A DNA stretch of 64,000 nucleotides, taken from assembly GCA_000004695.1 (NCBI GenBank), contig CM000152.2:2656001-2720000 (forward strand), written 5' to 3'. The DNA comes from Dictyostelium discoideum (Eukaryota). A program made the position numbers and the translations under genes. Below the pieces are notes generated by a model. The model saw nothing but the letters and a program-made list of their open reading frames with translations, was not told where the DNA came from and made no database searches. Positions 8,394-62,241 of this stretch are shown here, in pieces; the first letter of the stretch is position 1, and the number at the start of each line of letters is the position of its first letter.

Positions 8394-9872
8394 TTAAAGT
8401 TCAATTTTAATCTCCCAATTACTAAGATCCCAATTATTCACATTTGAGTGAGAGAGTTGTTGTTTATATTTTGGGCTTCTGTAAATGTATTTGGAAAGTG
8501 GGATATTTTTGAAAGGAGTATTCAAAAGGTAGAAACTGTTAACTGATTGTGGCAATTCACTTATTTCTTGATTAAATCCATCTAATAAAAACAAATTTAA
8601 AACACCATTTGGTATTGAACCTTTTAATAATGGTTTTTTAATTGCACCTACCAATAGAGATTTAATTGATTGTGGTAGCATACCTTCTGTTAGTTCAACA
8701 TTGAATCCATCAAGTAATAGCAAATATTCAACCGATTTTGGAATTGAACCTACTTTAATTGTTTTAACACTTGGTGCAATAGCTACAAATCCACTACCAT
8801 TTGGAACGATAGAATCATCTTTATAAATAAAATACTCAATTCCTACAACTTTATAAAATAATTTAATAACCTCCATTATAACAATCTAATATTATTATAA
8901 TTGTTGTAGTGAAAATGAGCAGGTTTTTTTTTTTTACCAACAGTAGTGAAAAATTTCACCAAGTATAGCAGGGAAAAAAAAAATGTTAAATTTCCCTACA
9001 ACAATAATTCTATTAAAATAATATAGAATATTTACCAGTAACTCTTTTTGGATCCTTTACATTTGTAATAGAGGGAAAATCGCTAATTTCGAATATTTCT
9101 TTAATTGATTCTTTAACTTGTTCACTATTATTTACAATATTTACATTTTTATATTGATTCATTAGTTCATTAATTTTATTTTCATTTTGATTATCTTTTA
9201 TTAGTAGTCGTGATTGATGACAATGTTTTAATATTTCAATATGTTGATAGTTATTATTATTATAATTATTATTATTATTAATATTATTTTTATTATTATT
9301 AATGATTTGATCAATATTTATATGATTTATTGTATTTTTATATTTATTTGTAATTAAATTAATAGTATTTAAATTATCATGTACAATGGTTGAAATGTTT
9401 GTATTGATATCTTTATTTTCATCATAGAGTGTTACTAATTGTTTGATTTTATCAATTTCAATGATTGGTAATAATTTGGAGAGTTCTTTAAATTCTTCTG
9501 TGATTGTATTTACATTTTCAGTGTGTTTATCTTCTAATGATTTAAATAAATTATTTGATTTATTTAATAGCTCATTATTGATACCAATTTGTTTATCTAA
9601 ATTTTGAATGTGATTATTTTTAAATTCTTCAAAGATTTCTTTTGAATTCTCTACATCTATACGATCAAGTTTATGACCATTATGATCTAAAACAATACAT
9701 TCAACACATACTACTACCTATTAAATTTATAATAATCATATCAAAGAATCACTTTTTATTTAAAGGGGTGGATATATGTTACAATAATTACCTTACATTT
9801 TGTACAAATCAATTTAATATCATGCCCTTTATGTATTGCACATTTGTTATCATATTTATTTATACTATCCAT
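8394..9872 (-). CDS. B-box zinc finger / FNIP-repeat protein, paralog 5 (3 exons)
   Basis: ATG at 9872 (MDSINKYDNKCAIHKGHDIKLICTKCK). Exon 3 is 8394..8849 (VVGIEYFIYKDDSIVPNGS then FNIP repeats). Intron 2 is enlarged by a ~90-bp MITE-like insertion. Confidence 0.7.
8904..8993. mobile_element. MITE-like ~90-bp element derived from the Tdd-4-like transposon terminus, inside intron 2 of paralog 5
   Basis: It is absent from the equivalent intron in paralogs 1 and 4. Its termini are inverted (gttgtagtgaaaa ... tttccctacaac) and match the TGTTGTAGGG/CCCTACAACA ends of the large element. It is flanked by ataat(t) on both sides, which looks like a 5-6-bp target-site duplication. Confidence 0.55.
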
Positions 9873-11939
9873 TGTGTGAGAGAATTTTTAAGAAAATTTA
9901 AGAAAAAAAAAAAATTTGGGAAAAAAAAAAAAAAAAAAAAAAAATTAAAATAAAATAAAATCTAATTTTTTGATGTTGGAAATCTTGTTTTGTGAAAAAA
10001 AAAAAAAAGATATTATTTTTTTTTTATTTTATATTTTATTAAACTAATATTAATTTTTTATTTATTTTTGACTATTTAAATTGTTTTTATTTTTTTATTA
10101 TTTAATCATTTGATTGTTTTAATATTTTTTACGAATAATTTGACCATTATTATAGTCTATTTTGGTCTTTTATAGTATATATTTGATCATGATCGGAACC
10201 TGGGAATCCCTCAGGATGTAGTAACATTAATCTGTATGATCTAGTGCATACCTCACAATGAAATTTGACCACATGACTTTGCTTTTACAAGAATAGTATT
10301 TTTTTTTGGATTTGGTAATCAGTGGGAGTTTCAATATCAATAGAGGTAGATTCAGCAGCAATTGCACGATAAAGCACATTAGAAATAGGATGTTTTAAAA
10401 AGCCAACTGATTCAACAAGTTTATCATATCTCTTTTCCATTATTTCCTTGCATACAACTCAAAGTGAATGAATGGTTGACTATAGTGATTTTGAAATGTT
10501 TTTGGACTAATACCAAAAGTAACACATATCTCATAAATTGGAAGATATTGTTTCCATTATAAGAGAGTCTTACACAAAAAAAATAAAAAATAAATAATGT
10601 TGTTAATAATTCATTTTATTTTTTACATTTTTTATTTTTTTTTTTTTTACATTTTATTTAATTTAGGACTTGGTGTAATTTTACTAAATAATTTAATTTA
10701 ATTTAATTTAATTTAATTTATTTTAATTTTTTTTCATATAATTTAAAAAAATGAGTGGTTTTTAATGGTAATATTATTGTCTAAAAATAGATATTTTTTT
10801 TTTAAAATAATATTATTTTTTTTTTTCATTCAAATTTAGAAATTTCCGGAAAATCTTAAAAAATACGTATTTCATTTAAAAGTAAAGCTATTTTTGTTTT
10901 TTTTTCTTTAAAAAAAACATATTATTGTAAAAAAAAGATGTATTTTTGGAAAAAAAATATTATTTTAAAATTTTATAATGTTAAGGGGGTAAAAAAAAAA
11001 TTTTTACTAATTATGTTAATCGGGGTGTTAAATATTCTTTAAAAATTTTTTTTTGAAGTTGTGTTTTTTAATTAAATAAATAAATTCATAATTATTTCCT
11101 TCTATTAATAAAAAAAAAAAAAACCCAGTAAAATGTTAAAATATAATTAATTAAATCAAATTTTAATAAAAGTTTGTAATTCTATTTTATAAATAAATAA
11201 AAATTATCAAAAAATAAGATTAATAATAACAAAAAAATAAAATAAAATTTATAAAAAATGAAACTTTTTATAAAAAAAAAAATAGCATTTTTTATTAAAA
11301 TTTAATTAATACTAAAAAATATTAGAATTTTTAAATTTTATTAATTGGTGTTATTTTTTTTTTTAAAAATAATTATAATAATTATTAGAAAATAGGATAT
11401 TTTATAAAAATAAGATTATTTATAAAAAATAACCTTTATTATTATATATTAAAAAATAAGATAAATAATAATAAAAAAAAATATATTAATAATTGATACA
11501 TTAAATAATTTTTAACATATTTTATTAAAATATAATAGATCTTGTATGGAAAATCATCACTGGTGATTTAAGTAATCAATTTTTATTTTTGGAGAATAAG
11601 ATGTTTAAAAAATAATAAAATAAATTATAAATTGGAAAATTTTATAATATTCAACATATTTATTTAAAATATAAGTAATCCAACTTGGTTTTTTTTTTAT
11701 TTTTTTATTTTCTTTTTTTTTTATCCATTTTTACTATATTTTCAAACTTTTTTTTTTATTTTCAAACTTTTCATTTTTACATAAAATTTAATATAAAAAA
11801 ATATAATAAAATTAAAAAAAAATAAAATAACAAAATTTGTTTAAGGGTCATTTTTATTTTTATTGATTTTATTGATTTTATTATTTTTATTTTTATTATT
11901 TTTATTGATTTTATTATTTTTATTTTTGTCGTTTTAGAA

Positions 11940-12170: not shown

Positions 12171-12926
12171 TTAAAGTTCAATTTTAGGTTCCCAATTTGA
12201 CACACCATTCCAATTACTCATTTTTGGGTGAGTGAGTTGTTGTTTATATTTTGGAGTTCTGTGAATAAAATTTTGAAATGGGAAATTTGTTAAAGGAGTA
12301 TCAAATAGGAATAAATTAGCTGATTGGGGTATTTCAGTTATTTTTTGATTAAATCCATCTAATAAAAACAAATCAGTAACACCATTTGGTATTGAACCTT
12401 TTAATAATGGTTTTTTAATTGCACCAACAAATAGATATCTAATTGATTGTGGTAGCATACCTTCTTTTAATTGAACATTGAATCCATCAAGTAATATCAC
12501 ACATTTAACCGATGTTGGAATTGAACCTATTTTAACTGTTTTAACACTTGGTGCAATCGCTACATGAGTTGTACCATTTGGAATGATAGAATCATCTTTA
12601 AAAATAAGATATTCATTTCCATCAGCTTTATATAAATAATAATTTAATATTAATAAAATAATTAAAACAATCTAATATTATTATAATTTGATTAAAATAC
12701 TTAATGATATTTACAAGTAACTCTTTTTGGGTCCTTTACATTTATAATAGAGAGAATTACTAATTTCAAATATTTCTTTAATTAAATTTTTAACATGTTC
12801 ACTATTATTTACAAAATTTACTTTTTTATATTGATTCATTAATTCTTTGATTTTTTTTTCATTTTGATTATCTTTTATTAATGGTTGTAATTGACAACAA
12901 TGTTTTAATATTTCAATATGTTGATG

Positions 12927-19507: not shown

Positions 19508-19536
19508 GCGACTTTTGGTCTCCCTGATTAAAAAGC

Positions 19537-19608
19537 TCCCCATTCGGGAATCGAACCCGAGGTACCAGTGTGAAAGACTAGAGTGTTACCGACTACACCA
19601 ATGAGGAT
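19537..19608 (-). tRNA. tRNA-Glu (anticodon UUC)
   Basis: The reverse complement TCCTCATTGGTGTAGTCGGTAACACTCTAGTCTTTCACACTGGTACCTCGGGTTCGATTCCCGAATGGGGAG folds as a cloverleaf: 7-bp acceptor stem with one G-U, anticodon loop CTTTCAC, T-loop GGTTCGATTCC. Confidence 0.85.
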
Positions 19609-44524: not shown

Positions 44525-44597
44525 AAAAAGAACTTGCTCGATGCAGGGATCGAACCTGCGACCGTGGCGTTATTAGCACCACGCTCTGCCGACTGAG
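44525..44597 (-). tRNA. tRNA-Ile (anticodon AAU)
   Basis: The reverse complement GCTCGATTAGCTCAGTCGGCAGAGCGTGGTGCTAATAACGCCACGGTCGCAGGTTCGATCCCTGCATCGAGCA has a perfect 7-bp acceptor stem, D-loop AGCTCAGTCGG, anticodon loop CTAATAA and T-loop GGTTCGATCC. Confidence 0.85.
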
Positions 44598-44611
44598 CTA
44601 ATCGAGCTTTT

Positions 44612-60528: not shown

Positions 60529-60600
60529 TTAATGTTTTTCAATATGATCCCATGGATAATTTACACCCTAAAATTTTTAAAAATAATATTAATGAATAAC

Positions 60601-60661
<61 letters not shown>

Positions 60662-60884
60662 TAATAATAATAATTAGTAAATGAGCATGAACATGAAAAT
60701 GATCACTGTGTGTGTGTGTTGTGTGTTGAAAAATTGGGTAAATAATTATAGTACGCACAACGAAAGTTCTCCAATCTTGTTTTGCTCTGTAGAAAACCCA
60801 GAACCAAACAGTTGTACCTAAACCAACTGAAAGGAGTTTGTGTACTTTTGAAACGTGAAATGGTGCGTGATGACCTCCTGCCAT
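60529..60884 (-). CDS. NDUFB2 (AGGG)-like complex I accessory subunit, 2 exons, about 54 aa
   Basis: Exon 1 60759..60884 (MAGGHHAPFHVSKVHKLLSVGLGTTVWFWVFYRAKQDWRTFV) resembles the AGGG/WFWI region of NDUFB2. The proposed donor is GTGCGT. The intron contains an (AAT)n microsatellite. Exon 2 is 60529..60567 (GVNYPWDHIEKH, then stop). The single-ORF read-through would instead give HTHSDHFHVHAHLLIIIILLLL..., which is implausible. Confidence 0.45.
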
Positions 60885-61301: not shown

Positions 61302-61365
<64 letters not shown>

Positions 61366-62241
61366 CTTAAAACAGAACGATTACATTCATTTTTTTATAT
61401 TTTATACCATTTTGTGTATTTTTGAGTTCTCTATTTTTATATGTTATAAATTAATATTAAAAATAAATAATATTAAATCATTTTTTTAAAAATTTCAATC
61501 AAAAAGGGTTTTTAGGTATTTTGGATTTAATGTTCGCGAACCGCCAGAGATATGTTAGTTTGTGATATTTATCTTTTTGACAGATATCAGGATTTTTTTT
61601 TGCTTTGTGTCTCAATTATTCAATCGAGACACTCAACGGTTTTTTCGATGTTTTTACACACCTTCATATCTCTGGTGGTCGCTTACGATTAATCAATGAG
61701 AACTTTTTGTTAGACGAAGAATGACAATTTCTTTTATGCATTTGTATCCAAAACCTATTTTACCTGTGATTAATTATATTTTAAAATTTAGTTTTGTAAC
61801 TTAATATTTTTAAAAAATAATCATTTAAGGGATTTTTTAAAAAAACAATGGTCTAAAATAAAAATAAAATTTTTTTTTTTTTTTTGAGAATTAAATTTTA
61901 AAAATTATTTCCATTATTTTTCTATATTTTTTTAACCCATTTTTTAATTCAATCCGATTATTTCCATAATATTTTATTAATATTTTTTTTTCCAAAAAAA
62001 CCTTTTTTAAACCTTTTGCATCTAAAATTTTTTTTTTTAGTTGATTCTACTCTTTTTTAAGACTTGAAAAAAAAAATGATATTTGAATTATAAGAGAAAT
62101 AATTACTTTACCTATTTTTTAAAATTTTTCTTTTTTATAATTTAATAAAAAAATAAAAAAAATTAAAATAAAAAAAAATAAAGAAAAGAAAATTTTAAGA
62201 TTTTATTATTTTTTATTTTTTAATTTTTAATTTTTAATTTT

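Follow-up and report, generated by a model that had tools for sequence, protein, structure and literature searches.

The element described here lies in a 64-kb stretch of chromosome 3 of Dictyostelium discoideum (64,000 nt, referred to throughout as the window), in the spacer between an NDUFB2-like gene (DDB_G0279939) and a glycosidase gene of family GH63 (DDB_G0279941), where a preliminary description of the sequence had correctly placed it. Both genes are on the minus strand, as is the element, which precedes the NDUFB2-like ATG by ~615 bp. The coordinate of DDB_G0279939 (chr3:2716529-2716884, in the available part of the supplement of PMC5295588) gives a window-to-chromosome offset of 2,656,000, so that window position x should correspond to ~chr3 2,656,000 + x, and the element to ~chr3:2,717,501-2,717,768 in AX4. 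It consists of a conserved block, containing a small open reading frame (ORF) and a predicted RNA fold, and of an upstream motif. The principal features are as follows.

61501 to 61768, minus strand: conserved unit and putative transcription unit of ~267 nt, recognized by sharp block edges in eight genomes and by a covariance model; both ends are provisional.
61664 to 61741, minus strand: small ORF of 25 codons plus TGA, MHKRNCHSSSNKKFSLINRKRPPEI, isoelectric point (pI) 11; open in 8/8 genomes, with a coding signature.
61824 to 61833, minus strand: invariant motif ATCCCTTAAA with core TCCCTTAA (61832 to 61825), resembling the Dictyostelium upstream sequence element (DUSE); candidate promoter element.
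61501 to 61505, minus strand: T run closing the block, CC(C) followed by T5 here and by T4 to ~T30 in other genomes.

The block departs from its surroundings in composition (GC 0.29-0.37 over 61500-61750 vs 0.04-0.16 in the flanks), which bears out the ~170-bp non-AT-rich segment of the preliminary description. The 14-bp inverted repeat reported there with a spacing of ~100 bp is present, with arms CCGCCAGAGATATG (61541-61554) and CATATCTCTGGTGG (61665-61678) lying 110 nt apart and complementary at 13 of the 14 positions; the remaining position reads G.T on the plus strand, or A.C if the minus strand is taken. The second hairpin within the repeat is confirmed as GTGTCTCAATTATTCAATCGAGACAC (61607-61632), a sequence that occurs nowhere else in the window. 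Two other statements need correction. The limits of 61530-61700 are too narrow, given a conserved unit of ~61501-61768 (~100 nt longer) and the motif at 61824-61833. Nor is the segment free of ORFs: several short ones are listed, and the minus-strand ATG ORF at 61741..61664 overlaps the right arm and has a strong coding signature in eight genomes. The inverted repeat is in fact the pairing of the last codons of this ORF with a downstream anti-sequence, the right arm consisting of codons PPEI plus the stop, and the left arm of the anti-sequence in the 3' tail. Structure prediction shows folding far better than chance, with z scores of -6 to -9; those for the 171 nt of 61530-61700 are -5.96 (plus) and -8.86 (minus), with 0 of 200 shuffles as stable, and a 273-nt stretch gives z = -7.5.

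The GH63 protein and the proteins in its 90% cluster served to retrieve the orthologous loci of two additional D. discoideum isolates, two genomes of 'D. cf. discoideum', two of D. citrinum, D. dimigraforme and D. firmibasis, and also of D. purpureum and P. violaceum. The comparisons below cover eight closely related genomes under five names (D. discoideum, D. cf. discoideum, D. citrinum, D. dimigraforme and D. firmibasis), with seven distinct sequences. Every discoideum-group genome examined has a single copy of the block at the same position, with identities to the window of 98, 98, 96, 93, 93, 86 and 85%, and the conservation among related dictyostelids on which the preliminary description had made its proposals depend is thus found in eight discoideum-group genomes. 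The block edges are sharp at ~61501 and ~61768, and the flanking spacer is unalignable among the more distant species. A covariance model of the block (R1) finds a single copy at each locus, at 261-332 bits, over a total of 178 kb, and no further copies are found in the window by pattern, blastn or covariance-model searches. At one D. cf. discoideum locus (L007 9244-9301, GCA_054859235.1) the contig stops within the block, which is represented by its first 58 model positions only. None of the eight genome annotations examined, including the RNA-seq-supported annotation of D. firmibasis, has a protein-coding gene call at the block.

The ORF, which makes up the 5' third of the block, keeps its ATG and an open frame in all eight genomes and has no indel in its 75 nt, the indels of the block beginning right at the stop codon. 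The stop occupies the same codon in five genomes and is displaced by one to three codons in D. dimigraforme and D. citrinum, where the C-terminus is extended by A and by RRC respectively (the latter through a change of TGA to CGA, with a stop three codons later), which is the kind of variation seen at the ends of genuine ORFs. There are 12 variable sites in the ORF, nine of them synonymous, all at third positions, and three causing conservative replacements (F/Y, S/T and E/A); changes at codon positions 1/2/3 therefore number 1/2/9. Monte Carlo placement of the same 12 changes yields a mean of 2.7 synonymous changes, with at least nine in 2 of 100,000 trials (P = 2e-5), and no like bias is seen in other frames, on the other strand or in other segments of the block. 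Rates of synonymous (dS) and nonsynonymous (dN) change in the ORF are close to those of the GH63 gene: between D. discoideum and D. firmibasis dS is 0.42 vs 0.55 and dN 0.034 vs 0.025 (ORF vs GH63), with D. dimigraforme dS is 0.43 vs 0.43 and dN 0.017 vs 0.019, and with D. citrinum dS is 0.33 vs 0.32 and dN 0.017 vs 0.015. The dN/dS ratio of the ORF is ~0.04-0.08. As judged from these substitutions, the frame shows strong purifying selection at the protein level. The predicted peptide has the consensus MHKRNCHSSSNKKF[S/T]LINRKRPP[E/A]I and is hydrophilic and very basic (grand average of hydropathy, GRAVY, -1.4; pI 11).

Given an in-frame TAA upstream of the ORF and a 1-nt indel in the D. firmibasis leader, the frame does not continue upstream. 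The same two features, and a splice donor that is not conserved (GTAAG, lost in two species), led to rejection of the ORF as an exon of a larger gene. Two plus-strand ORFs, one of 54 aa spliced across a 30-nt intron and one of 46 aa, were also discarded, because both lose their frame to frameshifts in D. dimigraforme and D. firmibasis and neither has a synonymous bias. Selenoprotein-type read-through of the UGA is contradicted by indels that break the frames beyond the TGA (alignment columns 112-139) and by the CGA that replaces it in D. citrinum; the RNA strand has ATGA only where ATA meets TGA, within helix H4/H5 (below), so the core of a selenocysteine insertion sequence (SECIS) is lacking. 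The protein collection searched has no exact match to four further short ORFs from the element or to the unspliced NDUFB2-like ORF, and a literature search found no catalogue of small ORFs in Dictyostelium.

On the minus strand the eight sequences yield a consensus fold of 67 pairs, whose helices are listed here in order from the 5' end, each 3' strand with its partner.

61746 to 61757, minus strand: helix H2, 5' strand UAGGUUUUGGAU, in the 5' leader; pairs with 61513-61526 through 12 pairs, 100% of cells paired.
61513 to 61526, minus strand: helix H2, 3' strand AUCCAAAAUACCUA, near the 3' end; present in the fold and in the consensus fold.
61720 to 61742, minus strand: hairpin H3, with the AUG in its 5' strand and a coding loop; 6 pairs, 100% of cells paired.
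61667 to 61686, minus strand: rod H4/H5, 5' strand; ORF codons 19-25, taking in most of the right arm of the repeat.
61532 to 61552, minus strand: rod H4/H5, 3' strand; the tail anti-sequence, with most of the left arm and a B-box-like GGTTCGCGAAC.
61647 to 61662, minus strand: hairpin H6/H7, weak and variable, directly after the stop; ~91-93% of cells paired.
61602 to 61637, minus strand: hairpin H8, containing the inner hairpin 61607-61632; 14 pairs, 98% of cells paired.
61563 to 61589, minus strand: hairpin H9, UGAUAUCUGUC...GAUAAAUAUCA; 10 pairs, 98.6% of cells paired.

Standard pairs occupy 97.6% of the cells vs 32-45% with the partners slid by 1-3 columns, and the covariation score is 0.135 vs at most 0.045 in the slid controls, a value reached by 0 of 500 shuffles; these figures describe seven distinct, closely related sequences, the same ones from which the structure was derived. 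Both sides change in four pairs (alignment columns 93/254, 121/128, 153/175 and 202/214). Helix H2 is near-invariant, with a single pair varying from A-U to G.U, and all eight genomes share an unchanged CTGGCGGTTCGC in the 3' strand of H4/H5. As folded for D. discoideum, the pairing of segment 61532-61552 reaches into the stop codon and takes in its first bases. Of the 14 pairs of H8, six vary on one side within Watson-Crick or G.U pairing and one has compensatory changes on both sides; in H9 three of ten vary on one side and one on both. Indels fall in the H6/H7 region, as do the C-terminal extensions that the ORF has in particular species. Pair 93/254 goes from U-A to G-C in D. dimigraforme and D. 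firmibasis, where the ORF side changes synonymously from CGT to CGG and the tail side from A to C, and both coding and pairing constraints can be seen at this single pair.

The alignment also distinguishes between the strands. There are 45 G.U cells in 17 pairs vs 2 A.C cells on the minus strand, and because these G.U cells would be C.A mismatches on the plus strand, as would the changes in H8, the functional strand is by this measure the minus strand. The consensus energy is -59.0 kcal/mol for the minus strand vs -52.9 for the plus strand, and the plus-strand consensus, whose covariation term is negative, no longer contains the inner hairpin H8. A plus-strand RNA was rejected, its G.U at one repeat pair being outweighed by the 45 minus-strand G.U cells. 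The 3' ~160 nt of the block, or tail, have no coding bias and evolve at 0.05-0.21 substitutions per site vs 0.32-0.55 at neutral sites (~1/6 to 2/5 of the neutral rate), and the single-stranded stretches UAUCACAAACUAA and UCCUGAU within them are invariant. Comparison of the aligned sequences shows the tail to be under selection for base pairing on the minus strand. As modeled, the RNA is a closed rod with H8 and H9 as independent hairpins at its tip.

All eight genomes have the upstream motif ATCCCTTAAA in identical form, at a distance of 72-74 nt on the upstream side of TAGGTTTTGG in the first helix, the AT-rich sequence between them being variable. Its core TCCCTTAA occurs once in the window and matches the DUSE consensus [AT]CCCA[AT]AA at 7/8 positions, departing at the A after CCC; there is no canonical DUSE within 200 nt on either strand. 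In Dictyostelium small RNA genes the DUSE is ~63 nt upstream (PMC3188802, PMC7919456), and on that spacing we place the probable transcript start at ~61763-61769, at the conserved ATCACAGG. The T run at the other end could be a terminator of RNA polymerase III (pol III) type or only AT-rich spacer, and the former reading is weakened by an internal, invariant T4 (GGTTTTGG) near the 5' end.

The explanation that we judge best, probable although well short of secure, is that the block is an unannotated, single-exon, minus-strand micropeptide gene whose short RNA folds back on itself. The RNA would be made from the upstream motif, beginning ~63 nt downstream of it, and the ~267-nt transcript would comprise a ~25-nt leader, the 25-codon ORF for a very basic peptide and the ~160-nt non-coding tail. 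The peptide would be translated from the 25-codon frame, with the tail segment 61532-61552 pairing with the last seven codons and the stop, and 61513-61526 with the 5' leader. Such a fold-back in cis may protect the ends of a very short transcript, limit the access of ribosomes to the frame, or both, and peptide output would then depend on opening of the rod.

Several observations weigh against a micropeptide gene of this kind. A DUSE-like motif and a T run at the end typify the non-coding RNA genes of Dictyostelium, some of them transcribed by pol III, and fit poorly with efficient translation; the AUG, the stop codon and the leader are all paired in the predicted fold. The coding test draws on 12 variable sites in closely related genomes. 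For the 25-residue peptide Pfam gives nothing, PDB a single chance match (E=1.6), and the 1.84 billion protein representatives searched no relatives. No long non-coding RNA (lncRNA) at chr3:2.7175-2.7178 Mb is among the entries listed in the available part of the PMC5295588 tables. Finally, searches with R1 and with the peptide (tblastn) give no credible homologue (best 13-18 bits) at the D. purpureum and P. violaceum loci, either by GH63 (L001, L010) or on the side of the inositol 5-phosphatase and NDUFB2-like genes (L131, L132).

In D. purpureum GH63 synteny is broken. A 52-aa gene tail-to-tail with the inositol 5-phosphatase gene (L131 12774-13253) takes the NDUFB2-like position there, and its upstream neighbor, a Plus-3 domain gene, is ~256 nt away, which leaves no room for the structured unit. 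Either this locus has been rearranged, or the unit is younger than the D. purpureum split. The NDUFB2-like protein itself has no relatives in the protein collection outside its own D. discoideum cluster. A metagenome scan with the invariant 17-mer gave only chance matches, the best of which (L022, 30 bits) is in an apparent bacterial coding sequence and is without the stems.

The main rival is a dual-function RNA in which the folded ~267-nt molecule, expressed from a DUSE-type promoter, acts in trans as a small nuclear RNA (snRNA)-like RNA or scaffold and also encodes the peptide, so that the structure serves the RNA's own job. We regard this as possible but on balance unlikely. It keeps both constraints, and present data do not separate cis from trans action. 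The position of the DUSE-like motif, at the distance published for non-coding RNA genes, fits such an RNA, as do the closure of the block by a T run in 8/8 genomes, the covariation of H8 and H9 with no obvious link to the ORF, and the invariant single-stranded stretches of the tail. The motif is nonetheless off the DUSE consensus at the A after CCC, no Rfam family matches, and the RNA strand is devoid of Sm sites, box motifs and known protein-binding motifs.

A related and rather doubtful variant is a lineage-restricted dual-function gene, in which an snRNA-style ~267-nt panhandle RNA, with a DUSE-like promoter and a T run at its end, has an RNA role and specifies a 3-kDa, pI-11 peptide that is perhaps a signaling or RNA-binding molecule. 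The only change tolerated at peptide residue 15 is S<->T, within the basic motif KKF[S/T]L, which resembles a PKA-type phospho-acceptor site; it is this that suggests a signaling or RNA-binding peptide, which could for example be a small phosphopeptide acting as a developmental factor, or a partner of the RNA that encodes it.

A purely non-coding structured RNA, with a pol III or snRNA-type RNA polymerase II promoter and a coincidental 25-codon frame, would suit the upstream motif, the terminal T run, the compact size and the panhandle shape, and would account for the burial of the AUG and stop in helices and for a peptide without relatives in the searches made. We think it improbable, since it leaves unexplained three properties of the frame: 9/12 changes at third positions and all of these synonymous (P = 2e-5), which RNA constraint does not predict; a dS equal to the neutral rate of the neighboring gene with a dN 10-25 times lower; and indels that avoid exactly the ORF stretch.

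Known RNA classes give no better account of the block. The preliminary description had suggested a small structured RNA, either a small nucleolar RNA (snoRNA) or a Class-I-like RNA; the structured RNA is upheld by the consensus fold, the compensatory and G.U-keeping changes and the conservation, but neither specific identity is, and the RNA contains a 25-codon ORF. Neither strand contains TGATGA, CTGA occurs once and internally, ACA is missing at the position 3 nt from the end, and Rfam gives no snoRNA match even at E up to 10, so that both box C/D and H/ACA snoRNAs were rejected. Class I RNAs are 42-65 nt long, with a short terminal stem and an 11-nt motif like CCTTACAGCAA (PMC7919456, PMC3188802); Class I and II identities were set aside, as CCTTACAG, CTTACAGC and TTACAG are absent from both strands and the unit is ~267 nt rather than ~60 nt. 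The Rfam search proposed at the outset was negative: a scan of the whole window with Rfam 15 at gathering thresholds finds no match at the element, and searches at E up to 10 with 801, 281 and 291 nt return only chance matches (psRNA14, TUG1_2, ST7-OT4_3 and ES173, at 8-16 bits). A signal recognition particle or RNase MRP-like RNA and a transfer-messenger RNA (tmRNA) were rejected for lack of an Rfam match and, for the latter, of any ARAGORN tmRNA in the window. The B-box-like GGTTCGCGAAC alone is not diagnostic of a vault-RNA-like gene with A and B boxes. As to telomerase RNA, by eye neither strand of the D. firmibasis telomere repeats GAGGAGAGAGTCCCTTTTTTT and GGGGAGAGACA (PMC11193728) matches the block; the only partial match, GAGACA/UGUCUC, is in covarying H8 and is not kept in D. 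firmibasis. The literature searched makes no mention of the arm or loop sequences or of the gene identifiers.

Three further explanations are much weaker. A primary microRNA or other Dicer substrate, with the ~20-bp rod cut into small RNAs, could be supported by the long near-perfect helix and by the intergenic location of most D. discoideum microRNA loci. It is very unlikely: the arms have no match in the available supplements of the Amoebozoa microRNA survey, the fold is multi-branched rather than a simple hairpin, and dictyostelid microRNAs are reportedly poorly conserved between D. discoideum and D. firmibasis, whereas the block is strongly conserved and partly coding. The protein-binding palindrome considered in the preliminary description, as a DNA-level regulatory module of the NDUFB2-like or GH63 gene, is equally hard to sustain. 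Its location would suit such a role, with the NDUFB2-like ATG ~615 bp downstream on that strand, but 45 G.U vs 2 A.C cells and codon periodicity are unexpected of a site in duplex DNA, the 270-nt conserved length far exceeds a binding site, and in D. citrinum GH63 is 1.5-1.9 kb away. Least credible of all is the short foldback element, a transposon akin to thug or to miniature inverted-repeat transposable elements (MITEs) with a hairpin formed by terminal inverted repeats; inverted repeats do enclose the segment and multicopy thug-S elements are known in D. discoideum, but the 64-kb window holds a single copy, as does each orthologous locus over 178 kb, and eight genomes share the syntenic position, with purifying selection at protein and RNA levels and a one-strand tolerance of G.U that is a property of RNA and not of DNA.

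The surroundings of the block have several features of their own. An antisense lncRNA, CUFF_2408_1 (chr3:2716318-2716929, plus strand; in the available part of the PMC5295588 supplement), overlaps the NDUFB2-like gene (window 60529-60884), just downstream of the block. A poly(A) run of ~60 nt on the plus strand (window 61303-61363) lies ~140 nt past the 3' end of the block, and long homopolymer runs likewise adjoin the block in D. firmibasis and D. dimigraforme. The distance from the GH63 stop to the block is 1.5-1.9 kb at the two D. citrinum loci (L004 8885-10392 and L008 9015-10936) vs ~0.45 kb in D. discoideum, and the extra DNA of L008 includes a gene call of 105 aa (9467-9956, opposite strand) without a Pfam match. 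Elsewhere in the window the tRNA scan gives only two tRNA genes, unrelated to the element, tRNA-Glu-UUC (19535-19607) and tRNA-Ile-AAU (44535-44607), both on the minus strand and with starts exactly 25,000 bp apart, which is probably coincidence. Two ACCCAAAA sites at 12732 and 14914 on the minus strand, ~2.2 kb apart, are each followed by ~70 nt of near-identical sequence, which suggests a local tandem duplication of a gene together with its upstream region.

The block thus carries two independent footprints of selection in 270 nt, a 25-codon frame as constrained as the neighboring enzyme gene and an RNA fold specific to one strand. Were it expressed, the block would be a compact, self-closing eukaryotic micropeptide message or a coding-and-structural RNA, and its location in a genetically tractable model organism means that synonymous recoding and compensatory mutation could split the two functions. 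GC-rich islands without a long ORF in AT-rich genomes should more generally be checked for codon-periodic substitution before they are labeled as non-coding RNAs.

Very short conserved ORFs (~10-45 codons) are found in small RNAs with conserved secondary structure in plant ENOD40, Staphylococcus RNAIII/hld and E. coli SgrS/SgrT. The likeness to these lies in the presence of a short conserved ORF within a small structured RNA; there is no sequence relation, the host here belongs to the Amoebozoa, the main helix is built from the 3' end of the ORF itself, and a role in trans is only a candidate. Bacterial type I toxin mRNAs such as hok are also compact, with long-range pairing of the ends closing the message around a small ORF, and the element resembles them as an RNA of a few hundred nucleotides with its ends and coding region in long-range pairing. 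It differs in being a eukaryotic nuclear gene, with a peptide that is hydrophilic and basic (GRAVY -1.4, pI 11) rather than a membrane toxin, and with no antisense partner seen. Compared with the short non-LTR segments between inverted repeats represented by thug-S and other foldback or MITE repeats of D. discoideum, it is present in one copy per locus examined, syntenic in eight genomes and under purifying selection. With the DUSE-driven snRNAs and Class I/II RNAs of Dictyostelium (PMC7919456, PMC3188802) it shares a G+C-richer island in AT-rich spacer, pairing of the ends, a downstream T run and a CCC motif ~60-65 nt upstream of the start (as predicted here), but it has TCCCTTAA in place of [AT]CCCA[AT]AA, is ~267 nt long rather than the 42-65 nt of Class I, lacks the 11-nt Class I motif and any Rfam match, and contains a frame with a coding signature.

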